Under the pieces are notes generated by a model that saw only the letters and a list, made by a program, of their open reading frames with translations, made no database searches and was not told the origin of the DNA. A stretch of DNA of 64,000 nucleotides from Escherichia coli (GTDB lineage: Bacteria > Pseudomonadota > Gammaproteobacteria > Enterobacterales > Enterobacteriaceae). The position numbers and the translations under genes are program-made. The stretch is from the NCBI RefSeq assembly GCF_030384885.1, contig NZ_CP128613.1, one strand, 5' to 3'. This document shows, one piece after another, positions 1,309 to 28,014 of this stretch; the stretch's first letter is position 1, and each line of letters starts with the position of its first letter.

Positions 1309-1357
1309 AATTCTATTTCCCTGACAAATCATGCGGATATAAATTTTAACATTTGGA

Positions 1358-1386
1358 TTGATAATTGTTATCGTTTGCATTATCGT
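1358..1386 (+). promoter_or_regulatory. Fur box(es) in cirA promoter
   Basis: tgataattgttatcgtttgcattatcgtta resembles the Fur consensus GATAATGATAATCATTATC; cirA is a classical Fur-repressed gene. Confidence 0.6.
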
Positions 1387-1553
1387 TACGCCGAAATCAA
1401 AAAAGGCTGACAAATCAGGGGCTGTTCCGGCTTTCTGGGATGATCACCTGCATACAAATAAGTCCACCGCGATGCTGCCGTACGCAAGGGGACGTGAAGA
1501 AGATGTGAGCGATAACCCATTTTATTTTCGTAGTTACCTCATGGAGATATGGA

Positions 1554-3533
1554 ATGTTTAGGTTGAACCCCTTCGTACGGGTCGGGCTGTGTTTGTCCGC
1601 TATTTCTTGTGCATGGCCTGTGTTAGCGGTCGATGATGATGGCGAAACGATGGTTGTCACCGCATCTTCCGTTGAGCAAAACCTTAAAGATGCACCCGCC
1701 AGTATCAGCGTCATTACCCAGGAAGACCTGCAGCGAAAACCGGTACAGAATCTGAAGGATGTCCTCAAAGAAGTGCCTGGCGTACAACTGACGAACGAAG
1801 GGGATAACCGTAAGGGCGTTAGTATTCGTGGTCTGGACAGCAGCTACACCCTGATTCTCGTCGACGGTAAACGCGTTAACTCCCGCAATGCCGTCTTCCG
1901 CCACAATGATTTCGATCTGAACTGGATCCCGGTCGATTCCATCGAACGTATTGAAGTGGTCCGTGGCCCGATGTCGTCGCTGTACGGTTCCGATGCGCTC
2001 GGCGGTGTCGTCAACATCATCACCAAGAAGATCGGTCAGAAATGGGCAGGCACAGTAACTGTTGACACCACCATTCAGGAACATCGCGATCGCGGTGATA
2101 CCTATAACGGTCAGTTCTTTACCAGCGGACCATTAATTGACGGCGTGCTGGGAATGAAAGCTTACGGCAGCCTGGCAAAACGTGAAAAGGATGACCCACA
2201 AAACTCAACGACCACCGATACCGGAGAAACGCCGCGTATTGAAGGATTCTCCAGCCGCGACGGCAATGTGGAATTTGCCTGGACACCGAATCAAAATCAC
2301 GATTTTACTGCCGGATACGGTTTTGACCGTCAGGATCGTGATTCCGACTCGCTGGACAAAAACCGCCTGGAACGTCAGAACTACTCCGTCAGCCATAATG
2401 GGCGTTGGGATTACGGCACCAGCGAACTGAAATACTACGGTGAGAAAGTCGAAAACAAAAACCCTGGCAACAGCAGCCCGATAACTTCCGAAAGCAATAC
2501 GGTCGACGGCAAATACACGTTGCCGTTGACGGCGATTAATCAGTTTCTCACGGTTGGCGGTGAATGGCGTCACGACAAACTTAGCGATGCGGTGAACCTG
2601 ACCGGGGGAAGCAGCTCCAAAACGTCTGCCAGCCAGTACGCGCTGTTTGTGGAAGATGAATGGCGGATCTTCGAGCCGCTGGCGCTGACGACCGGCGTAC
2701 GTATGGACGATCATGAAACCTACGGTGAACACTGGAGTCCTCGTGCCTACCTGGTTTATAACGCCACCGACACCGTAACGGTGAAAGGGGGCTGGGCGAC
2801 GGCATTTAAAGCGCCTTCTCTGTTGCAACTTAGCCCTGACTGGACGAGCAATTCCTGCCGTGGCGCATGCAAGATTGTGGGTAGCCCGGATCTGAAACCT
2901 GAAACCAGCGAAAGTTGGGAGCTGGGGCTTTACTACATGGGTGAAGACGGCTGGCTGGAAGGGGTGGAGTCCAGCGTGACCGTTTTCCGTAACGATGTGA
3001 AAGATCGCATCAGCATCAGCCGTACGTCTGACGTCAATGCTGCACCGGGCTACCAAAACTTTGTCGGTTTTACAGCGGACGGTGTGCCAGTATTCAGCTA
3101 CTACAACGTTAACAAAGCACGTATTCAGGGCGTGGAAACCGAACTGAAAATTCCGTTCAACGATGAATGGAAACTGTCGATCAACTACACCTACAACGAT
3201 GGTCGTGATGTCAGCAACGGCGAAAACAAACCGTTGTCCGATCTGCCGTTCCATACCGCTAACGGTACGCTGGACTGGAAACCGCTGGCGCTGGAAGACT
3301 GGTCATTCTATGTTTCTGGTCACTATACCGGGCAGAAACGCGCCGACAGCGCGACGGCTAAAACTCCGGGCGGTTATACCATCTGGAATACCGGCGCGGC
3401 CTGGCAGGTGACCAAAGACGTCAAACTGCGTGCGGGTGTGCTGAACCTTGGCGACAAGGATCTCAGTCGTGACGACTACAGCTATAACGAAGACGGACGT
3501 CGTTACTTTATGGCAGTGGATTATCGCTTCTGA
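1554..3533 (+). CDS. cirA: TonB-dependent catecholate siderophore / colicin I receptor
   Basis: 659-aa ORF; N-terminal signal peptide, TonB box region (ETMVVTA) and C-terminal ...AVDYRF beta-barrel terminus; matches recalled CirA sequence. Confidence 0.95.
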
Positions 3534-3591: not shown

Positions 3592-4914
3592 TTATAACCG
3601 ATGAAATTTTGCCAGTAAGGCCAGTGAAAATGTTGTCAGCAAAATGGTAATGACTGCGTAAATATACACTCCTGACCATTCCCAACTGTTTTTCACCATA
3701 ATAACTGGAAGCCCTGCCATTGCCGCGCCTAAATAACTAAACAAGCCCCTGAATCCAGTAATGGAACCTGCCGCATCTTTATGCGTAACATCAAGACACC
3801 CGACAGCGAATAACATATGCGGTCCATACAATGCAAACCCCATGATTGTAAACAGAATAGCCGTTAATGTGTAGGAGACGTCCTGCACCAGCGGTACGAG
3901 AACGATGCAAATACATAAAGCGATGGCAAAGATTAATCCGGTCATCCAGCGGTTACTTTTAAACATGAAATCGGACAAGTACCCCGCCAGTAATCCCCCA
4001 GCAAGTCCACCTGCTTCAAACCAGGATATAATGGAGTTCGCTTTAATCAGGCTCCAGTTATGAACCTGAGAATAATAAATTTGTGGCCAGTCATTGAGGA
4101 TGGTGCGTGCAATATAGACCGACATATCCCCGAGGATAATGAGCCAAACTAATGGGTTGGTAAGAATATATTTAACGAATATTTGCCAAAAACTGAGATC
4201 AACCGGACTTGCTTTAACTTGTGCAAGTTCTGTCGGGTCGTTGCGCCACTTACCGACGTTAGGCAAACCGAGCGTGCCGGGACGATCTTTTATCGTAAAC
4301 AAGGCAACAATCCCCATAATCAGTGAGATTACACCCGGAACATAAAAGCCCATCTTCCAGCTGCCACTAAAAGCAATAGCAAAGCTTGTCAGGAGAGGCG
4401 CAAGACTACCGCCAATATTATGCGCAGCTTCAACAACTGCCCACCAGCGTCCGCGTTCATTTTTCGAGAACCACGAGGCCATAATTTTTGCCATTGGCGG
4501 AAAACTGGTACCCTGGAGAATAGCATTAAGGCTATACAGGATATAGAACGCAGCAACGCTGTCTGAAAAACCGAAAAGAATGTTAACAATACCGACGCCA
4601 ATAAGTACGGGGCCAGTCATCGCTCGTGGGTTAATTTTATCGACTAACATGCCACCTACAAACTTCATGGAGCCATAAAGAATGTAAAAGACCGACGACA
4701 TGATAGCGAAATCTTGTGCGGTTAATGACGTATCCGTTAACATCGCTGGCATGGCCGCAGAGAAATTCTTGCGGGTTAAGTAAAATACGGCATAAGAGAT
4801 AAATACAGAGGTGATGATTTCAATGCGAAATTTTTTATAAGTATGATCAACTTCTTCTTTTGGTTTGACCACCGGTTGGTCGGCCTGGCTGAAAATAAAT
4901 TTTTTCAAACTCAT
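3592..4914 (-). CDS. MFS transporter of the organophosphate:Pi antiporter family (UhpT/GlpT/PgtP-like)
   Basis: 440-aa 12-TM protein; segments such as WQIFVKYILTNPLVWL align to recalled UhpT (WQIFVEYVLKNKVIWL); AT-rich, part of inserted island. Confidence 0.75.
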   Translation of the reverse strand: MSLKKFIFSQADQPVVKPKEEVDHTYKKFRIEIITSVFISYAVFYLTRKNFSAAMPAMLTDTSLTAQDFAIMSSVFYILYGSMKFVGGMLVDKINPRAMTGPVLIGVGIVNILFGFSDSVAAFYILYSLNAILQGTSFPPMAKIMASWFSKNERGRWWAVVEAAHNIGGSLAPLLTSFAIAFSGSWKMGFYVPGVISLIMGIVALFTIKDRPGTLGLPNVGKWRNDPTELAQVKASPVDLSFWQIFVKYILTNPLVWLIILGDMSVYIARTILNDWPQIYYSQVHNWSLIKANSIISWFEAGGLAGGLLAGYLSDFMFKSNRWMTGLIFAIALCICIVLVPLVQDVSYTLTAILFTIMGFALYGPHMLFAVGCLDVTHKDAAGSITGFRGLFSYLGAAMAGLPVIMVKNSWEWSGVYIYAVITILLTTFSLALLAKFHRL

Positions 4915-4946
4915 TGTGAGTTTCCTTTTCTGTGAACCTTATGGCG

Positions 4947-5834
4947 CTATAATTTTTCTTCTATAAAAAAGAGAAGCGACTCGAAACCATTAAAATTAAT
5001 CTGGTCAGCAATTTTTTCCCGGGTTTTAGGTTTTGCTTTCCATGCCACGCCATTTCCGGCATGCAAAAGCATAGGAATATCATTGGCACCATCTCCACAG
5101 GCAATGATGTTTTCACGGCAGATAGCTAACTCTGTCGCTAAATTTATCAGGGTTTGCTTTTTCTTTTCTGCATTCATAATAGGTAAGGTAATTGTATCAG
5201 TTAACAGATCTTCCTTAATGCGCACAGAGTTAGAAAATGCAAAATCAAGTTGATATTTTTCCTTCAATCGCTCAGTAAAAATATCCAAACCTCCAGATAT
5301 AATTGCCGTCTTGAATCCTTTTTCTTTTAGTATGGGAAGAATAGTTTCAAGACCTGGTGAAAGAGTCATCTGTTCACAAACTTGATGCAATATATCTTTA
5401 TGCGTTCCTTTAAGCATGGCAATTCGCCGGGTAAAACTGGTATCAAAATCGATTTTCCCTTCCATCGCTTCACGGGTCAGTGCGGTGATTTTTTCAGAGA
5501 TGCCGAGTCTACGGGCTATTTCATCGACACCTTCTTCTTCAACAAAGGTGGAATCCATATCAAAGGCAATAATTCCCTGATCCGGTAAGACCCTGGGTTT
5601 ACGGAAAAAATCAAACTGATGATTATCAGCACGGTGACGTAAACCAGCATAAAAAGCAGGGTTGGTAACATCATCTGGTAATACTAGCTTTAGATACTCT
5701 TTATTTATTTGCCCACTGTAATTCGTTGTTAGCGAAAACACCGAGGGGGAAATCTTTAAATGTTGCAGATAATCTTCCAGACATTTTTGGGTGATGTCGA
5801 TGCCTGTTGGCGACAAGAAATAAATAATCGTCAT
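4947..5834 (-). CDS. HAD-family phosphatase, phosphoserine phosphatase (SerB)-like
   Basis: 295 aa; HAD motif I FDMDST, motif III K...GG, motif IV GDGANDIPML as in SerB. Confidence 0.75.
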   Translation of the reverse strand: MTIIYFLSPTGIDITQKCLEDYLQHLKISPSVFSLTTNYSGQINKEYLKLVLPDDVTNPAFYAGLRHRADNHQFDFFRKPRVLPDQGIIAFDMDSTFVEEEGVDEIARRLGISEKITALTREAMEGKIDFDTSFTRRIAMLKGTHKDILHQVCEQMTLSPGLETILPILKEKGFKTAIISGGLDIFTERLKEKYQLDFAFSNSVRIKEDLLTDTITLPIMNAEKKKQTLINLATELAICRENIIACGDGANDIPMLLHAGNGVAWKAKPKTREKIADQINFNGFESLLFFIEEKL

Positions 5835-5927
5835 TTACCGCTCCTTTTTATCTGCAATGATTATAATAAGATTTCATAGAGGCTGATGTATCTGACAATC
5901 ACAGTTGTGAATGTTAAATAAAAGATA

Positions 5928-5991
5928 AAAAAGTACTTTTTTTGATACTTTGAAATAATAAGATACTAAAAGTACCATTTTTGATATCTTT
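5928..5991. promoter_or_regulatory. Pair of ~23-bp imperfect direct repeats in divergent promoter region of the island (candidate operator)
   Basis: aaaagtactttttttgatacttt (5928-5950) and aaaagtaccatttttgatatcttt (5968-5991) in the AT-rich gap between divergent operons. Confidence 0.4.
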
Positions 5992-6044
5992 ACCAGGATA
6001 TAAAGAATAACTATTTTTCAACGTTGAAGGAATCATTTAAAAAT

Positions 6045-7397
6045 ATGGAAAGCTGCATAGATATATTCAAGATAGTTATTGGTCCATCCAGTTCCCGCAC
6101 AGTCGGGCCAATGCGTGCGGCTTATAATTTTGTGTCACAATTGAAACAGCAAGAAATGTTACCTTTGTTGCGGAAAATTGATGTCGAACTTTATGGTGCG
6201 CTGTCATTAAGCCGCAAGTGCCATAATGTTGATGTGGCGATTTATCTCGGTTTGCAAGGACACTTACCTGACAGCGTTGACATTCGCATGGAAATGTCCG
6301 CCATCAGGCGTGCAGAAACTGAGGCGACGCTGGAAGTTATGCCTGGTGTCAACGTCAGTGTATCCATTCTTTCTAATCTACAAGCGCATCCGGGGCACCC
6401 TTATGCGATGACATTTCGTGCCAGAGATGACTGGTTTACACTTTATGAAGAAACCTGGTTTTCTATCGGCGACGGTCAAGTGCTAAAAGCAGGAGAGGCG
6501 ATTATTCCTCCATCAGTCACTCCACATCCTTTTGAATTCCAGAACGCAAACGAATTATTAAAACTTTGTCAGCAAAACGGATTATCTGTCGCGGCATTAA
6601 TGATGAAAAACGAACTGCACTGCCAGACAGCAGCTTTTTTGCATGACGATCTTCATAAAAAATGGGAAGTAATGAAGGATGCGGTTTATCGCGGGATGCA
6701 TACAGAAGGATTACTTCCAGGTCCGTTTCAGGTTAACCGTCGTGCCTGTGCTTTATATAAATCGTTGCAGTCAAAGGGTTTTTCCAATGACTTCCTGACT
6801 GCGCTCAATTGGGTCAATACTTTTGCCATTGCGGTGAGCGAAGAAAATGCTGCGGGTGGACGTGTCGTGACAGCACCCACCAACGGCGCGAGCGGTATTA
6901 TCCCGGCTGTACTGTGCTGGTATGATAAATTCATTCACGAGCTTGATACATACTCCGTTACCCGCTTTTTACTGACCGCTGGTGCCATCGCCATTCTGTT
7001 CAAAAAAAATGCCTCTATTCTGGGTTCTGAAGTTGGATGTCAGGGGGAAATAGGTGTTGCCAGTTCAATGGCGGCAGCAGGATTAGCAGAACTTATGGGC
7101 GGGTCAGTGGCTCAGGTACTTAGCGCGGCAGAAATTGCGATGGAGCATCATTTAGGTTTGACCTGTGATCCAGTTGGCGGGCAGGTACAAATTCCTTGTA
7201 TTGAACGAAATGCTATTTCAGCTGTGAAAGCTATCAACGCAACGACGATGGCGTTGAGTCGCATAAGCGAGCCGTGCATTACGCTGGATGAGATAATTTC
7301 CGCGATGTATGAAACCGGAAAGGATATGAGCGCTAAATACCGTGAAACTTATCATGGCTGTCTGAGCAAATTGCAGCCAAGAAAAAAGGATGCGTAA
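6045..7397 (+). CDS. L-serine dehydratase (Fe-S, SdaA/SdaB family) homolog
   Basis: N-terminus [23 protein letters not shown] parallels SdaA [23 protein letters not shown]; ORF track start 6024 is a TTG, ATG at 6045 preferred. Confidence 0.8.
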
Positions 7398-7398
7398 G

Positions 7399-7788
7399 AT
7401 GAAATATAATACGATGAATAACAACGAAATTATTTTATCACTGTGCGCTCGCATTAAAGAAACGCGTATCTCATTATCATTGACCCAACAGCAGTTAGCC
7501 GAGCGTGCATTGGTGGGCATAGCAACGGTCAAGCGGATTGAAAAGGGGGGAAGTTTAAATCTTGATACTCTCATTTCTCTTCTGCGCGCGCTGAATAAAT
7601 TGCAAAATCTCGATGCCATATTGTTCGAAGCAGAAATGCGTAATTTCAACGAAAATAGTTCCAGCGGCGAAGGGGCAGGGCGACTACAGGTACGCCAGCA
7701 ACTGACAGATTTAAACCAGAAGTCTCCAGCCCCGCACGCAGATGACCATAATTTTAGTACGGCGCTGGAAAATACCCTCTGCTGGTGA
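7399..7788 (+). CDS. XRE-family helix-turn-helix transcriptional regulator
   Basis: HTH segment LSLTQQQLAERALVGIATVKRIEKG; start ambiguous (7390/7399/7414); overlaps end of upstream gene, stop abuts yeiG stop. Confidence 0.65.
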   Translation: MKYNTMNNNEIILSLCARIKETRISLSLTQQQLAERALVGIATVKRIEKGGSLNLDTLISLLRALNKLQNLDAILFEAEMRNFNENSSSGEGAGRLQVRQQLTDLNQKSPAPHADDHNFSTALENTLCW

Positions 7789-8658
<870 letters not shown>

Positions 8659-8882
8659 TCATCATACCGTTTATTCAATGTGCTGTGAGTAACTTTCACT
8701 TCCGTATATACATAACGATGTTTTAACATCTGCTGATGAAAGGCAGCGGCAATTACAATAATTATCGCTGTGAATACTGGATTATGTGCGCCGCCTCACG
8801 CACAATAATCAGGCTGTAAATCAGCTTAATAACTTTGCCCCCACGCAGGGCGGAGGCGTCACACCTGCAGGAGAAATCATAA

Positions 8883-15862: not shown

Positions 15863-17098
15863 TTACAACGTTACCGGGTGTTCTTTCTCTCCCTTCTTAA
15901 ACTTCACTTCCCCAAGATCAATACAACCCACCGGGCAGACGTGACCGCAAAGCAGGCAACCCACACATTTCTCGGTATTACAATGCGGTGTGCGGGTTTT
16001 CTCGCTCCATTCCATCGCCTGGTGACCGCCGTCATAACAGGAAATATAACAGCGTCCACAGCCAACACATTTATCGAGATTGATGTTGGGATAGACAATA
16101 TAACTGCGGTCTAAATCTTCCGCCGGAACAATATTGTGATTCGCCAGACCTACCATCTCCTGCAACGAATCAAACCCCTGATCGGCAAGATAGTGTGACA
16201 ACCCGCTCGCCATATCTTCCACTATCCGATAGCCGTACTGCATAATGCCGGTGGTCACCTGCAATGTCGCTGCACCGAGCAATAAAAACTCTGCCGCATC
16301 TTCCCAGGTTTCAATACCGCCGATACCGCTGATCGGGAAATCGCGCAGCTCTGGATGGGTGCGCATTTGCTGAATAAAGCGTAGGGCGATCGGTTTTACC
16401 GCTTTACCGGAATATCCGGAAATACTCGATTTACCGTTAACGATCGGCATACCAATTTTCTGATTAAGATCGATATTGGTGATGGATTTAACGGTATTAA
16501 TCGCCGCAATGCCATCTGCGCCGCCGCGCTTCGCAGCCAGCGCCACTTCGCACATATCACCGATATTCGGCGTCATCTTCGCCAGCATCGGCAGCGTAGA
16601 ACCACGTTTCACTGCCCGACAATATTTTTCTACCAGCTCCGGGCTTTGCCCGACATCACTACCCATCGCATGAGAAGTCATTTGCGGACAGGAGAAGTTA
16701 CACTCGATCATATCCGCACCAGCTTCTTGCACTAGCCGCGCCAGATCCTCCCACTGCTGTTCATTTTCGCCCATGATCGAAGCGATCAACACTTTGTCCG
16801 GATAATCTTCTTTCAGCCGACGCAGGGCGGCCAGATTCTCCTCCAGAGGATGTTCGGCAATCTGCTCCATATTTTTGAAGCCGATAAAACCGGTATCTTC
16901 TTTCACCAGATGATCAAAACGTGGTGAGACTTCGTTGGCGATAAAAAAGCCGATCGTTTTAAATACCACGCCACCCCAGCCCGTGTCGTAGGCTTTGGCG
17001 CACATCTCATAGCAATTGCCTACCGGCGAAGAAGAGAGGCAGAACGGGTTGGGAAACTTCACGCCGCAAAAGGTAATCGAAAGATCTTTCGTTAACAT
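15863..17098 (-). CDS. preA: NAD-dependent dihydropyrimidine dehydrogenase subunit PreA (4Fe-4S, FMN)
   Basis: Matches recalled PreA; C-terminal ferredoxin CxxCxxCxxxCP motifs; start taken at MLTKDL. Confidence 0.9.
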
Positions 17099-18330
17099 GA
17101 GCAAGCTCCCTCTAAATAGTGATGAATTGCCTCAGCGGCTTCTTTCCCGGTTTTCACGGCATAGACCACGGTTTTGTCACCCTCAACAATATCGCCAGCA
17201 GCAAAGACTTGCGGATCGCGGGTCTGGTAATTTTGTGTTTTGATGGTGTTACGCTGCGGCTCTAACTCCGCAAAGGCATCCAGTCTGGCATGCTGACCGA
17301 CGGCGAGAATAATTTTATCTGCCGCCATCGTCAGTTCGCCCGGTAAGCGTACATGCTTAAACGTGACTTTATTGCCTTCCACGGCCACTGGTGTGAATCC
17401 ATCGATGATCGAAACGCCCAACTCCCGGGCGCTGGCAAACTCTTTTTCGCTTGCCGGAAACTCATCTAACTCTTCACGTGCTACGCAGGTTACCGCCTGA
17501 CAGCCGAGAACTTTCAGCGTGCTGGCAACGTCCATCGCGACATCACCGCCGCCGATAATTAATGCGCTTTGTGGAATGCTGATATCGCCCTGCGCCTGCC
17601 GTGCACGTTGCAAGAAGTCGACGGCAATCTCAACGTCGCTATGCTCAAACAGCGGTAGCCCGGAACCGCCCGACAACCCTACGGTGACAAGTACTGCGCG
17701 GTTTTCCGCTTTCAGTTGCTCCAGGGTGAGTACTTTACCGATTTCGTTATTGCACTTAATGGTCACCCCCATTTTTTCGATACGGGCGATCTCTGCATCC
17801 AGCACGGATTGCGGCAAACGAAATTGCGGAATACCGTTACACAGCCAGCCACCGGGTTGCGCTTCTTTTTCATAAATAGTGACGTCGTACCCCATATTTG
17901 TCAGCGTCACGCTGGCCTGCAATCCAGCAGGACCTGCGCCAATAATGGCGACTTTGCCGAGCGTTTTAGTACCAGGCTGATAAATTTCCATCCCGGTTTG
18001 TTGTTCAAAATCAGTGATAAAACGCTGTAAGCGACCGATATCAATGGGATCATCAACACCGGCACGGGTACAACCGCTTTGACATAATTTCTCCGTTGGG
18101 CAAACTCTGGCGCATACAGCACCTAAGGCATTATTTTCGCGAATTGTCTCGGCAGCGCCTTTAAAATTACGAAAGTAGATTGAGCGTATAAATTTCCCCG
18201 GATCGGTTTGTGCCGGGCAAGCCTGACTACAGGGAGCGTCGTGACATAATAAACAGCGAGAGGCTTCTTTAATCGCCAGTAAAGGCGTAAAAGCCGGAGT
18301 GAGTTCATCCAGATAATTTTGTTGCGGCAT
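17092..18330 (-). CDS. preT: NAD-dependent dihydropyrimidine dehydrogenase subunit PreT
   Basis: 412 aa; FAD/NAD GxGxxG motifs (IIGAGPAG), N-terminal Fe-S cysteines. Confidence 0.9.
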
Positions 18331-18534
18331 GTGATCTTCCTTAATGCTATGAGTAATTAAGGCGAACGCTAAATATACTCGTCATACTTCAAGTTGCATG
18401 TGCTGCGTCTGCGTTAGCTCACCCCAGTCACTTGTCGCCTTCCTGCAACTCGAATTATTTAGAGTATAAATATTGCGTGCTGATATTAAGGCTAAGCGTG
18501 TGGGGAAATTTAAACTGTGAAAGGATTCACAAAT

Positions 18535-18565: not shown

Positions 18566-18616
18566 TATTAAGTGAAGTAATAATTATTCTCAATAATTAA
18601 CAGAAAAGGGAAAATA

Positions 18617-22002: not shown

Positions 22003-22914
22003 CTAATTCTGCTGTAAAAAGTGCAGAAACTGACTTAAAGCATAAGAAGGCGTTTCGTTATTACGCCAAAACACACCGACGCTGCCTTTCTGTTCAATCT
22101 TTGGCAGGTTGAGGATTGCCAGTTGCCCCTGGCTGGCATAACGTTGCGCCAGGCGTAATGACAAAATAGAGATCATATTGCTGCTTTGTAACAGGTTGGT
22201 ACTGACGTTCATCGATGCCGACTCAATCGTGTTTTCTGGCAGCATCACGCCGTGGTCTACCAGCGCATTATCAATGCTGATGCGGATGGGGGTACCTGTC
22301 GGCCAGACTATCCACCGCCAGTTAGCAAGATCATTCCAGCTGAGGGTGGCGTATTTCGCCAGTGGATGCTCAGGACGGGCGACAAAGCATACCGGCTCGG
22401 TGTAGAGCACGCGATAATTCAGCGGCAGCTGCAACGCGCGACCGCCAATTCGCCCAACCACCACATCGACAGAACCTGCCAACAGATCTTGCAGCAATGG
22501 GGTCATCACCTTCTCTTCGATATTCAGGTGTAGAGTTGGCATCTCCTTGAGCAAATGCAAAATCGCCTGGGATACGCAGTCAGTGGCGACGGGAGAACAG
22601 CCAATTTTCAGACTGCCGACCAGTCCACCTTGTTTAAAGCGAGCCAGTTCATATTGCGATCTTTCCATGTCATTGATTAACCGTTGGGCATGTTGCAATA
22701 ACAATTTGCCGCCTTCGGTCGGACGAAGCCCTTTGCTGTGCCGCTCAAAAAGTGTGAGTCCGATCTCATCTTCCAGTTGTGACAACCATTTCGAAAGCGC
22801 GGGTTGGGTGATATTCATCATCCGCGCGACATGGGTCAGATTACCCTGTTCACCCAGCGCCACCAGCATTTGCAGGTGATGTAGTTTTAGTTTTTGCGCC
22901 CAGTTCGCCATTTG
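22003..22914 (-). CDS. mhbR: LysR-family regulator of the gentisate cluster (MhbR-like)
   Basis: N-terminal HTH LTHVARMMNITQPALSKWL, divergent from the catabolic operon; start uncertain (22914 or 22959). Confidence 0.75.
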   Translation of the reverse strand, partial: QMANWAQKLKLHHLQMLVALGEQGNLTHVARMMNITQPALSKWLSQLEDEIGLTLFERHSKGLRPTEGGKLLLQHAQRLINDMERSQYELARFKQGGLVGSLKIGCSPVATDCVSQAILHLLKEMPTLHLNIEEKVMTPLLQDLLAGSVDVVVGRIGGRALQLPLNYRVLYTEPVCFVARPEHPLAKYATLSWNDLANWRWIVWPTGTPIRISIDNALVDHGVMLPENTIESASMNVSTNLLQSSNMISILSLRLAQRYASQGQLAILNLPKIEQKGSVGVFWRNNETPSYALSQFLHFLQQN

Positions 22915-23037
22915 CCATAACCTCCAGGTTATCTCTCTGCCCGAAATGCCATTGTACATCTCATCTCTTTAATCACATTATCGCAACATATACAAAACAA
23001 AAGAAACATCTACCTTACCTGCACTGAGGCATTTACT

Positions 23038-24396
23038 ATGACTCAACGACGTGATTTACAAGCACTTATCGATGCCGCTCCGGTCGGCAAGATGCAGTGG
23101 CGCGTTATCATCTGCTGTTTTCTGGTGGTAATGCTCGATGGTTTTGACACCGCGGCTATCGGCTTTATCGCCCCTGATATTCGCACTCACTGGCAGCTCA
23201 CCGCAGGCGATCTCGCCCCGCTTTTTGGTGCGGGTCTGCTGGGATTAACCGCAGGCGCACTGCTTTGTGGCCCGTTGTCCGATCGCTTTGGTCGCAAGCG
23301 GGTGATTGAGCTGTGCGTCTTTTTGTTTGGCGCGTTAAGCCTCGCCTCGGCTTTCTCACCGGATCTGCAAACGCTGGTCTTCCTGCGCTTTCTCACCGGC
23401 CTGGGTCTGGGCGGCGCGATGCCGAACACCATCACCATGACCTCGGAGTATCTGCCTGCCCGCCGCCGCGGCGCGCTGGTGACGCTGATGTTTTGCGGCT
23501 TTACGCTGGGTTCGGCGTTTGGCGGGATTGTCAGTGCGCAGCTGGTGCCGGTGATTGGCTGGCACGGCATTCTGGTGTTGGGGGGCGTGTTACCGCTGAT
23601 GCTGTTTGTCGCACTGCTGGTAGTTCTGCCGGAATCGCCACGCTGGCAGGTGCGCCGCCAGCTACCGCAGGCGGTGATTGCGAAAACCGTCAGCGCCATC
23701 ACCCGCGAGCGTTATGTCGATACCCACTTTTATCTCATTGAATCAGCCTCCGTTACAAAAGGCAGCATTCGTCAACTGTTTATGGGACGTCAGTTACCCA
23801 TTACGTTGATGTTGTGGGTAGTGTTCTTTATGAGCCTGCTGATTATTTACCTGCTCTCAAGCTGGATGCCGACGCTACTGAACCATCGCGGCATAGACCT
23901 GCAACACGCGTCCTGGGTCACCGCCGCGTTCCAGATTGGCGGTACGTTGGGCGCGCTGGCGCTGGGCGTGCTGATGGATAAGTTCAATCCTTTCCGCGTG
24001 CTGGCGCTGAGCTATGCCATAGGCGCTATATGCATCGTGATGATTGGCTTAAGCCAGGATGGATTATGGCTGATGGCGCTGGCGATTTTCGGCACCGGCA
24101 TTGGCATTAGCGGATCTCAGGTGGGGCTGAATGCGCTGACCGCAACACTTTATCCAACACAAAGTCGCGCCACGGGCGTGAGCTGGTCAAATGCTATCGG
24201 CCGCTGCGGCGCGATTGTCGGCTCGCTTTCTGGCGGCCTGATGATGGCGATGAATTTCTCTTTCGACACCCTGTTTTTCATTATCGCTGTGCCCGCGGCG
24301 ATCAGTGCGGTGATGTTAAGCCTGCTGATCACCGTGGTTCGCCAGTCGACCTCTGTCCCTGACTCACTGCCTCGCGCAGGCGTTGTGAACGAATAA
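23038..24396 (+). CDS. mhbT: MFS aromatic acid:H+ symporter (3-hydroxybenzoate/gentisate transporter-like)
   Basis: 452 aa, 12 TM, MFS motifs ([11 protein letters not shown]). Confidence 0.75.
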
Positions 24397-24407
24397 GGAG
24401 CATCCTA

Positions 24408-25436
24408 ATGACTGATAACAATCAAAAAAGCCGCGAGCAATTTTATCAGCATATTTCCGGGCAAAACCTGACCCCGCTGTGGGAGTCACTGCACCACCTG
24501 GTGCCGAAAACGCCCAACGCCAACTGTGCGCCAGCGTACTGGAATTATCAGGAGATCCGCCCGCTGCTGCTGGAGAGCGGCAGCCTGATTGGCGCGAAAG
24601 AAGCTGTGCGTCGTGTGCTGGTACTGGAAAACCCGGCGCTGCGCGGGCAGTCTTCCATTACCGCGACTTTATATGCCGGTTTGCAACTGATCATGCCGGG
24701 CGAAGTGGCACCGAGTCATCGTCATAATCAGTCGGCGCTGCGTTTTATTGTTGAAGGCAAAGGGGCATTTACCGCCGTTGATGGCGAACGCACGCCAATG
24801 AATGAGGGCGATTTTATCCTGACCCCACAATGGCGCTGGCACGATCACGGTAACCCTGGCGACGAACCGGTTATCTGGCTCGATGGACTGGATCTGCCAT
24901 TAGTGAACACTCTGGGCTGCGGTTTTGCCGAAGATTACCCGGAAGAGCAACAACCGGTAACGCGTAAAGAGGGCGATTATCTGCCACGTTACGCTGCCAA
25001 TATGTTGCCGCTGCGCCATCAGACCGGGAACTCCTCACCCATCTTTAACTACCGTTATGACCGTAGCCGCGAAGTGCTGCACGATTTAACCCGCCTGGGC
25101 GATGCCGATGAGTGGGATGGCTACAAAATGCGCTACGTCAACCCGGTCACCGGCGGCTATCCGATGCCGTCGATGGGCGCCTTCCTGCAACTGCTACCGA
25201 AAGGGTTCGCCTCCCGCGTGGCGCGTACCACTGACAGCACTATCTACCATGTAGTGGAAGGTAGCGGACAAGTCACCATCGGCAATGAAATCTTCACCTT
25301 TAGTGCAAAAGATATCTTTGTGGTGCCGACCTGGCACGGCGTGTCATTCCAGATTACGCAAGATACCGTTTTATTCAGTTTTTCGGACAGACCGGTACAA
25401 GAAGCCCTGGGGCTGTTCCGCGAAGCGCGTTATTAA
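24408..25436 (+). CDS. mhbD: Gentisate 1,2-dioxygenase (bicupin)
   Basis: 342 aa; cupin His motif [12 protein letters not shown]; size and order as in gentisate clusters. Confidence 0.8.
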
Positions 25437-25451
25437 TTTGGGAGAGAGAAA

Positions 25452-26153
25452 ATGACTCAATATGTATTCGAACCACAAGCGCCCGTTACCGTACCGGTTG
25501 TTGGCAGTGATGAACAATTCCCCGTGCGCCGCGTTTACTGTGTCGGGCGTAACTATGCCGCCCACGCCCGCGAAATGGGCTTTGATCCGGATCGTGAACC
25601 CCCCTTCTTCTTCTGCAAACCAGCAGATGCCGTTGTTCCGGTCGCCGCTGGCGAAACGCTGGCGCTGCCGTATCCGGCGCAGACCGATAACTATCATTAC
25701 GAAATTGAACTGGTGGTGGCGATTGGTAAAAAGGGCAGCGATATCCCACTGGAAAAGGCCCATGAATATGTCTGGGGTTATGCCACAGGCCTTGATATGA
25801 CTCGCCGTGACCGTCAAATGGAAATGCGTCAGATGGGCCGCCCGTGGGAAATCGGCAAAGCATTTGATCTCTCGGCCCCCATCGCACCGCTGCACAAAGC
25901 CAGCGAAACTGGCGGTATTGATAACGCACCTATCTGGTTACAGGTTAACGGCGAAGATCATCAGCGCAGCGATATTCGTCATCTCATCTGGTCAGTGAAT
26001 GAAACCATCAGCTACCTGTCAGGCTTCTTTGAACTGCAACCGGGCGATCTAATCTTTACCGGTACGCCAGAAGGGGTGGGCCCAGTAGTCAAAGGTGATG
26101 TGATCACGGGCAACGTCGAGGGCTTAACCCCTATCGCGGTGAAGATTGTCTGA
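25452..26153 (+). CDS. mhbH: Fumarylpyruvate hydrolase (FAH family)
   Basis: 233-aa FAH-fold protein following the dioxygenase. Confidence 0.75.
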
Positions 26154-26161
26154 GGTGCATG

Positions 26162-26806
26162 ATGAAGCTGTACAGTTTTTTTAATAGTTCAGCATCGTAC
26201 CGGGTACGCATTGCGCTGGCGCTGAAAGGCATTAATTACCAGACCGAAGGGGTGAATATCCGTATTGGTCAGCAAAATGAACTGGCCTATCGGCGGATGA
26301 ATCCTGTCGGGCTGGTGCCGACGCTGCTGACTGACGAGGGCGAGTCACTCGGTCAGTCGCTGGCGATTATTGACTGGCTGGATCGTCACTACCCGCAAGT
26401 TCCGCTGGTGCCGCAGGAAGAACCGGCCCGCAATAAGGTGCTGGAAATTGTCTATGCCATCGCTTGTGATATTCATCCATTGAATAACCTGCGCGTGCTG
26501 CGCTATCTGACCGAAGAGCTGAACGTCAGTGAAGAAGAGAAAAAACGCTGGTATGCGCACTGGATCCAGCAAGGGTTAAGCGCGGTGGAACAGCTACTGC
26601 GCCAGAGCCAGTCGGGGCAATTTTGTGTGGGTGAGACGCCGACGCTGGCAGACTGCTGCCTTGTTCCGCAGTGGGCGAACGCGCTACGTATGAACTGCGA
26701 TCTGAGTGGATATCCGCGCTGCAAAGCGGTGTACGACGCCTGCACACAACTGCCAGCGTTCATTGCCGCAGCGCCAGAAAATCAACAAGATAAAATTTCA
26801 GCCTGA
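26162..26806 (+). CDS. mhbI: Maleylpyruvate isomerase (GST zeta-class)
   Basis: 214-aa GST-like protein. Confidence 0.75.
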   Translation: MKLYSFFNSSASYRVRIALALKGINYQTEGVNIRIGQQNELAYRRMNPVGLVPTLLTDEGESLGQSLAIIDWLDRHYPQVPLVPQEEPARNKVLEIVYAIACDIHPLNNLRVLRYLTEELNVSEEEKKRWYAHWIQQGLSAVEQLLRQSQSGQFCVGETPTLADCCLVPQWANALRMNCDLSGYPRCKAVYDACTQLPAFIAAAPENQQDKISA

Positions 26807-26820
26807 CCAGGAGAACCATA

Positions 26821-28014
26821 ATGACTAAAGTGACACGCGCAGTAATTGTGGGAGGCGGGATCGGCGGTGCGGCAACTGCGCTGTCACTGGCCCGCCAGGG
26901 GATCAAAGTGGTGCTGCTGGAAAAGGCGCATGAGATCGGTGAGATCGGCGCAGGTATCCAGTTGGGGCCAAATGCGTTTTCGGCGTTGGATAGTCTTGGT
27001 GTTGGCGAAATCGCCCGCCAACGTGCGGTATTCACCGATCACATCACCATGATGGACGCGGTGAACGCCGAAGAAGTGGTGCGTATTGAAACCGGGCAGG
27101 CCTTTCGTGACCATTTCGGCGGCCCTTACGCGGTGATCCACCGCGTTGATATTCATGCCTCGGTGTGGGAAGCGGTACTGACGCATCCGAACGTGGAGTA
27201 TCACACCTCTACGAATGTCGTGGATATTCGTGAGACGGAAGACGATGTCACCGTTTTCGACGATCGAGGTAATAGCTGGAGCGGCGATATTTTGATTGGA
27301 TGTGATGGCGTGAAGTCAGTGGTGCGCCAGAGCTTATTAGGCGATGCGCCGCGCGTCACCGGTCATGTGGTCTACCGTGCGGTTATCGATTGTGCGGATA
27401 TGCCGGAAGATTTACGTATTAATGCGCCGGTATTGTGGGCGGGGCCGCACTGTCACCTGGTGCATTATCCTTTGCGCGGCGGCAAGCAGTATAACCTGGT
27501 GGTGACATTCCACAGCCGCCACCAGGAAGAGTGGGGCGTGAAGGATGGCAGTAAAGAGGAAGTGCTTTCCTATTTTGAAGGCATTCACCCGCGTCCTCGC
27601 CAGATGCTGGATAAACCGACGTCATGGCGACGCTGGTCAACGGCCGATCGTGAACCGGTAGGGAAATGGGGGACTAACCGCATTACGCTGGTGGGCGATG
27701 CGGCCCATCCGGTGGCGCAGTATATGGCACAAGGTGCCTGTATGGCGCTGGAAGATGCAGTAACGCTGGGTAAGGCGCTGGCGCAGTGTGAGGGTGATGC
27801 GGCGCAAGCTTTTGCGCTGTATGAGTCGGTACGTATTCCGCGTACCGCGCGCATCGTCTGGTCGACCCGTGAAATGGGGCGGGTTTATCACGCCGCAGGG
27901 GTAGAACGTCAGGTACGTAACCTGCTGTGGAAAGGGAAATCGCAGGCAGAGTTTTATCGCGGCATGGAGTGGCTGTACGGCTGGAAAGAAGATAACTGTC
28001 TGCAACCACGCTGA
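26821..28014 (+). CDS. mhbM: FAD-dependent aromatic monooxygenase, 3-hydroxybenzoate 6-hydroxylase / salicylate hydroxylase family
   Basis: N-terminal VIVGGGIGGAATALSL dinucleotide fold, DG and GD FAD motifs. Confidence 0.75.
   Translation: MTKVTRAVIVGGGIGGAATALSLARQGIKVVLLEKAHEIGEIGAGIQLGPNAFSALDSLGVGEIARQRAVFTDHITMMDAVNAEEVVRIETGQAFRDHFGGPYAVIHRVDIHASVWEAVLTHPNVEYHTSTNVVDIRETEDDVTVFDDRGNSWSGDILIGCDGVKSVVRQSLLGDAPRVTGHVVYRAVIDCADMPEDLRINAPVLWAGPHCHLVHYPLRGGKQYNLVVTFHSRHQEEWGVKDGSKEEVLSYFEGIHPRPRQMLDKPTSWRRWSTADREPVGKWGTNRITLVGDAAHPVAQYMAQGACMALEDAVTLGKALAQCEGDAAQAFALYESVRIPRTARIVWSTREMGRVYHAAGVERQVRNLLWKGKSQAEFYRGMEWLYGWKEDNCLQPR

Follow-up and report, generated by a model that had tools for sequence, protein, structure and literature searches.

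Is the iron-box-like sequence in front of cirA in this Escherichia coli strain a genuine Fur operator, and if so, is cirA the gene that it controls? The window (the whole stretch of DNA analysed, 64,000 nucleotides) begins at its 5' end inside lysP, whose open reading frame ends at 1261, and a spacer of 292 bp separates lysP from cirA. A sequence-only reading of the window had placed a Fur box in the cirA promoter at 1358-1386, within this spacer, and had called the site ordinary. The call of a Fur box is borne out, both by a 22.3-bit match that is the best in the window and by a 43-bp stretch that shows no mismatch to the Fur footprint of K-12. We consider it practically certain that window positions 1347-1389 are the Fur operator of the E. 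coli cirA (cir) promoter, and none of the evidence speaks against it. The word ordinary was also well chosen, the site being the well-known Fur operator of cir.

The identity of the downstream gene rests on two independent lines of support, a profile match and the RefSeq annotation of a related strain, and both agree with the name cirA that the sequence-only reading had given it. The open reading frame at 1554-3533 (plus strand, 659 aa) encodes the catecholate siderophore and colicin I receptor: it matches the NCBIfam equivalog NF007478 with 1443.8 bits, against a cut-off of 745, and the alignment is full-length, joining protein residues 1-659 to profile positions 1-663 of 663. The region 1200-1620 is 100% identical to that of strain 2013C-4282, in which RefSeq names the open reading frame cirA. 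For comparison of the two proteins, CirA has 659 aa in the window strain and 663 aa in K-12.

The upstream open reading frame, which RefSeq names lysP, has a 923-bit match to NF008094, a subfamily model for amino-acid permeases. Downstream of it on the plus strand, a terminator scan found an intrinsic-terminator-like hairpin at 1281-1304, with a 10-pair stem that includes 6 G-C pairs, followed by a run of T; this hairpin would shield the cirA promoter from transcription that runs on from lysP. The arrangement is general in the species, since region 1200-1620 was matched in 5,425 of 5,426 complete E. coli genomes and was always flanked by annotated lysP and cirA. Identity across this 421-bp promoter region reaches 99% or more in only 19 of the 5,425 matching genomes, and the window strain therefore belongs to an uncommon E. 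coli lineage.

The core box and its overlapping neighbours

The scan for Fur sites used a 19-bp weight matrix made from 18 independent K-12 Fur sites, with cir excluded, and rendered symmetric. The strongest Fur site at each of 13 K-12 promoters was included, with centre coordinates from Chen et al. 2007 (PMC2189734), as was the best site from each of five more footprinted regions. The coordinates of Chen et al. were converted from version 2 to version 3 of the K-12 genome, and each 19-mer was checked by eye for centring on the palindrome. The resulting matrix has the consensus AATGATAATCATTATCATT and an information content of 19.3 bits. The known preT/yeiT Fur site came out as its second-best match in the window, with 21.4 bits at 18576-18594, so that the matrix has an internal positive control.

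The top match of the entire 64-kb window, even though the matrix was built without cir, is the 19-mer ATTGATAATTGTTATCGTT at 1357-1375, with 22.3 bits. This core box is a near-palindrome of the form GATAAT-T-GTTATC centred at 1366. It begins 1 bp 5' of the interval 1358-1386 of the sequence-only reading, which has the sequence TTGATAATTGTTATCGTTTGCATTATCGT. The probability of 22.3 bits is 1.8e-8 per position, corresponding to 0.0012 expected matches per window, and none of 300 dinucleotide shuffles reached this score (shuffle maximum, 20.9 bits). Real training sites, each left out in turn, score 7-28 bits, and the core box falls in the upper half of this range. Searches with simple consensus forms led to the same place. 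The inverted repeat GATAAT-N-ATTATC with at most one mismatch has its sole match in the window at 1360-1372, where 0.14 are expected by chance; this 6-1-6 core, GATAATtGTTATC, has 1 mismatch to the repeat. The 7-1-7 form TGATAATNATTATCA with at most two mismatches has two matches in the window, against 0.21 expected, and one of them is TGATAATtGTTATCG at 1359-1373, with 2 mismatches.

Chance or AT-richness as the cause of the match was considered and is ruled out by statistics that use the spacer's own composition: at that AT-rich composition, 3e-5 matches of 22.3 bits are expected in the spacer.

Where does the box lie relative to the gene? Its centre precedes the cirA ATG (1554) by 188 bp, and the interval 1358-1386 spans 196 to 168 bp upstream. 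The distance of about 170 bp given in the sequence-only reading thus describes the 3' edge of the interval (168 bp) well and falls short for the centre of the box. The core box at 1357-1375 is the same site as the strongest one that Chen et al. 2007 give for cir, which lies 189 bp upstream of the K-12 ATG. Those authors list three cir sites in a 31-bp cluster, the strongest having 20.7 bits at -189, and state that Fur sites are generally clustered at 6-bp steps (PMC2189734). Weaker Fur-box-like 19-mers overlap the core in the same 6-bp register within 1351-1387 of the window, with centres at 1360 (3.1 bits), 1372 (6.3 bits) and 1378 (1.8 bits). These centres are offset by -6, +6 and +12 bp from that of the core and are all weak, at 1.8-6.3 bits. 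The predicted sites therefore overlap at offsets of the 3- or 6-bp kind that goes with binding of several Fur dimers.

The K-12 operator and the tandem cirA promoters

How closely does this DNA correspond to that on which Fur has been observed? In Table 3 of PMC2189734, a DNase I footprint of Fur on K-12 cir is given as NC_000913 2244957-2244999 and ascribed to Griggs & Konisky 1989. Its equivalent in the window, 1347-1389, is the 43-mer TAACATTTGGATTGATAATTGTTATCGTTTGCATTATCGTTAC, with 0 mismatches. Alignment of the whole spacer with that of K-12 MG1655 gave 98% identity, with differences at 1314, 1344, 1394, 1419 and 1455 and a 1-bp deletion after 1453; all of them lie outside 1347-1389. Thus, the window shares with the K-12 cir P1/P2 operator the same protected region base for base, the neighbours lysP and cirA, the promoter hexamers and a box centre 188-189 bp from the ATG. 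The two differ in that the window has T at 1344 where K-12 has A, which is outside the footprint; in that window position 1394, which directly precedes the P2 start, is A in place of the C of K-12; and in that the leader is 1 bp shorter in the window strain. Judged from the identity of the two sequences, the site is the already known cir Fur operator itself and not merely one similar to it.

A promoter scan found two overlapping sigma-70-like promoters on the plus strand, each with a 17-bp spacer. Promoter P1 (1346-1374) comprises a -35 element TTAACA at 1346-1351 and a -10 element TATCGT at 1369-1374, and P2 (1358-1386) comprises TTGATA at 1358-1363 and TATCGT at 1381-1386. The interval of the sequence-only reading, 1358-1386, is exactly the span of P2 from -35 to -10. 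Guillier & Gottesman 2008 quote two K-12 cirA promoters with leaders of 173 nt (p1) and 160 nt (p2) (PMC2588501). Positions of +1 placed from these quoted K-12 lengths fall at 1382 for P1 and 1395 for P2, which are 8 and 9 nt past the respective -10 hexamers. The cirA 5' leader would accordingly occupy 1382-1553 and have 172 nt from P1 and 159 nt from P2, one base less than in K-12. Both the P2 -35 and the P1 -10 lie under the core Fur box, and the footprint equivalent 1347-1389 covers all four P1 and P2 hexamers.

This coincidence permits a different explanation of the match, namely that it is a by-product of AT-rich sigma-70 elements (TTGATA, TATCGT) in a promoter to which Fur does not bind. 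Promoters are AT-rich like Fur boxes, and a promoter-like -35/-10 pair has exactly the same limits as the interval. However, the expectation of 3e-5 given above already takes the AT-rich composition of the spacer into account, and identical K-12 DNA has been footprinted (per the cir entry in PMC2189734), gel-shifted (PMC3145626) and found bound by Fur in chromatin immunoprecipitation (PMC4676285). Moreover, the roles of operator and promoter are compatible, and their overlap is how repression would work. We consider a promoter without Fur binding to be exceedingly improbable.

We propose that the Fur operator acts on cirA as follows. When iron is sufficient, Fe2+-loaded Fur dimers would bind the high-affinity near-palindrome centred at 1366 and probably spread from there onto the weaker overlapping hexamer repeats to its left and right. 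The -35 and -10 hexamers of P1 and P2, the two tandem sigma-70 promoters predicted here, are all covered by the operator; therefore, bound Fur would exclude RNA polymerase and shut off cirA. Repression is thus presumed to occur by promoter occlusion. Upon iron starvation, Fur would lose its metal and leave the DNA, and cirA would be transcribed with a leader of 159-172 nt, which the small RNAs OmrA/B and RyhB target in turn.

Several studies of Fur at cir bear on this scheme. On the cir promoter, a metal-dependent gel shift and a Fur titration have been described (PMC3145626); an RNA-polymerase competition control on cir is named in a figure legend of the same paper, the text of which gives no outcome. 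Fur was bound upstream of cirA by ChIP-seq in K-12, and cirA RNA levels were dependent on Fur and RyhB (PMC4676285). In the uropathogenic strain CFT073, cirA is among the core-genome genes that Fur regulates (PMC7157518), and cirA is a member of the Fur-1 iModulon (PMC10164565). The K-12 and CFT073 literature (PMC4676285, PMC7157518) thus agrees with the known iron regulation to which the sequence-only reading had appealed. We infer from the conserved DNA that Fur regulation is the same in the window strain as in K-12. Conceivably, the T at 1344, the A at 1394 and the 1-bp shorter leader could change the relative use of P1 and P2 or affect small-RNA control of the leader in this lineage; nothing in the data points there, and we think such an effect very unlikely.

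Could the box instead be the operator of another regulator, such as Zur or another protein of the Fur family, or CRP, with the iron control of cirA being indirect? The boxes of the Fur family are all AT-rich palindromes. Griggs et al. are said to have reported in 1990 that cAMP-CRP influences cir expression, and this counts for such a regulator. Against it, the matrix was trained on Fur sites alone and the core box scores in the upper half of genuine Fur sites. No CRP site was found to overlap the Fur box, the only CRP-like match in the spacer lying elsewhere, at 1504-1519. Direct binding of Fur is documented in K-12, and it is on this positive evidence for Fur, with a Fur matrix alone used for scanning, that we set another regulator aside as scarcely credible. 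Fur remains the regulator that we assign to the operator at 1347-1389.

The CRP-like match at 1504-1519, TGTGAGCGATAACCCA, lies in the cirA leader and has 2 mismatches to TGTGA-N6-TCACA; it may be due to chance. The same may hold for a weak Fur-matrix match of 9.6 bits at 1508-1526, which overlaps it. The pairing region of OmrA/B in the K-12 cirA leader, -35 to -10 (PMC2588501), corresponds to window positions 1519-1544. With a permissive threshold, scanning 1200-1700 revealed no Rfam family in the promoter or leader; the two matches obtained, both sub-threshold, lie over the lysP terminator.

How does the cir box compare with other Fur boxes of E. coli (fepA-fes, entC, fhuA, fecI, ryhB, sufA and others)? 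It shares with them the 19-bp near-palindrome of the AATGATAATnATTATCATT type and scores within their range. The clustering of sites at 6-bp steps is likewise shared, being general for Fur sites according to Chen et al. (PMC2189734). In contrast to those boxes, the cir box serves a pair of overlapping tandem promoters, and its distance from the start codon is unusually large because the leader is about 160-173 nt long.

With this operator, the window strain would keep the canonical iron control of the receptor for catecholate siderophores and colicins Ia and Ib, and the identity of cirA is confirmed, which adds little beyond annotation. CirA is also a receptor through which siderophore-conjugated antibiotics are imported. 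In practical terms, the cirA box can be used as a convenient internal positive control when the window is scanned for Fur sites.

Conservation of the box among Enterobacterales

Within E. coli, the 43-bp footprint is at least 99% identical in 4,924 of 5,426 complete genomes, and 443 more carry one or two changes. Beyond the species, a conserved CirA peptide, written as a degenerate pattern, was searched for in a collection of species-representative genomes, and 87 Enterobacterales loci were obtained; 75 were kept, those in which a start codon could be placed and at least 250 bp lay upstream. A Fur-matrix match of at least 18 bits was present within 400 bp upstream at 58 of the 75 cirA-like loci, compared with 9 of 1,397 other 400-bp pieces of the same loci.

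When the upstream sequences are aligned on this match, ATTGATAA is virtually constant and the right half mostly reads nTTATCnTT. The aligned box occurs in Escherichia, Salmonella, Citrobacter, Klebsiella, Raoultella, Kluyvera, Kosakonia, Buttiauxella, Atlantibacter, Yokenella and Trabulsiella, and farther from it the cirA upstream sequence diverges between genera. The cirA promoters of other Enterobacterales thus resemble that of the window in the core ATTGATAAT-N-nTTATCnTT, followed by a -10-like element TTATC(G/A)T at the same spacing, the position of the P2 -10; they differ from it in the distance from box to ATG, which ranges from about 110 to 215 bp.

At the remaining 17 of the 75 cirA-like loci (L018, L025, L029, L031, L032, L034, L035, L044, L049, L054, L055, L058, L063, L070, L075, L081 and L086), no match of at least 18 bits was found within 400 bp upstream of the inferred start. 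The loci that do not carry a strong box are mostly from Pantoea, Mixta, Erwinia and Winslowiella (Erwiniaceae); Cedecea neteri and some Enterobacter sp. are also among them. The lack of a strong box may mean that the gene lies within an operon, that its start codon was placed wrongly, that the receptor is a paralogue or that the box has diverged.

Might the Fur box be real and yet act on lysP, or on an antisense or divergent transcript, and not on cirA? A promoter-like pair on the minus strand at 1371-1343 could be taken to favour this. However, lysP precedes the box on the cirA strand, stops at 1261 and has the terminator hairpin after it, and the box overlaps the mapped cirA promoters. In addition, the box travels with cirA across genera, and cirA RNA is Fur-dependent (PMC4676285, PMC7157518). 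A target other than cirA therefore has hardly any probability, and cirA is the gene to which we assign the operator.

Other Fur-matrix matches and insertions in the window

The preT/yeiT site that served as control for the matrix, AGTAATAATTATTCTCAAT at 18576-18594, lies upstream of preT (minus strand, 17092-18330), at a distance of 31 bp from the yeiS end. Chen et al. 2007 list a yeiT/preT Fur site (PMC2189734), and Beauchene et al. 2015 describe Fur binding at the preT promoter region. The yeiS-preT spacer is 286 bp long in the window strain and 193 bp in K-12, and it is longer because of a 92-bp insertion (about 18376-18467) between the Fur site and the preT start. The insertion contains AAGTGACTGGGGTGAGC and GCACATGCAACTTGAAGTATGACGAGTATA, and because of it the Fur box lies about 255 bp, instead of 163 bp, upstream of preT. 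We take the inserted DNA at about 18376-18467 to be an ERIC/IRU-like repeat sequence.

The third-best Fur-matrix match in the window, AATTACAATAATTATCGCT at 8751-8769 (13.6 bits), lies in the divergent spacer between yeiG and folE. About 0.33 matches of such strength are expected per window, and this one is therefore compatible with chance.

Finally, we note two larger differences from K-12 in gene content. Between cirA and yeiG, positions 3592-7788 hold four genes, for an MFS transporter, a SerB-type phosphoserine phosphatase, an L-serine ammonia-lyase and an HTH protein; since cirA and yeiG are 31 bp apart in K-12, this segment is an accessory insertion of about 4.2 kb. Between yohJ and dusC, where K-12 has a spacer of about 240 bp only, positions 22003-28014 hold a LysR regulator and a cluster for 3-hydroxybenzoate/gentisate degradation, which comprises mhbT, gtdA, maiA and genes for a FAH-family hydrolase and 3-hydroxybenzoate 6-monooxygenase.
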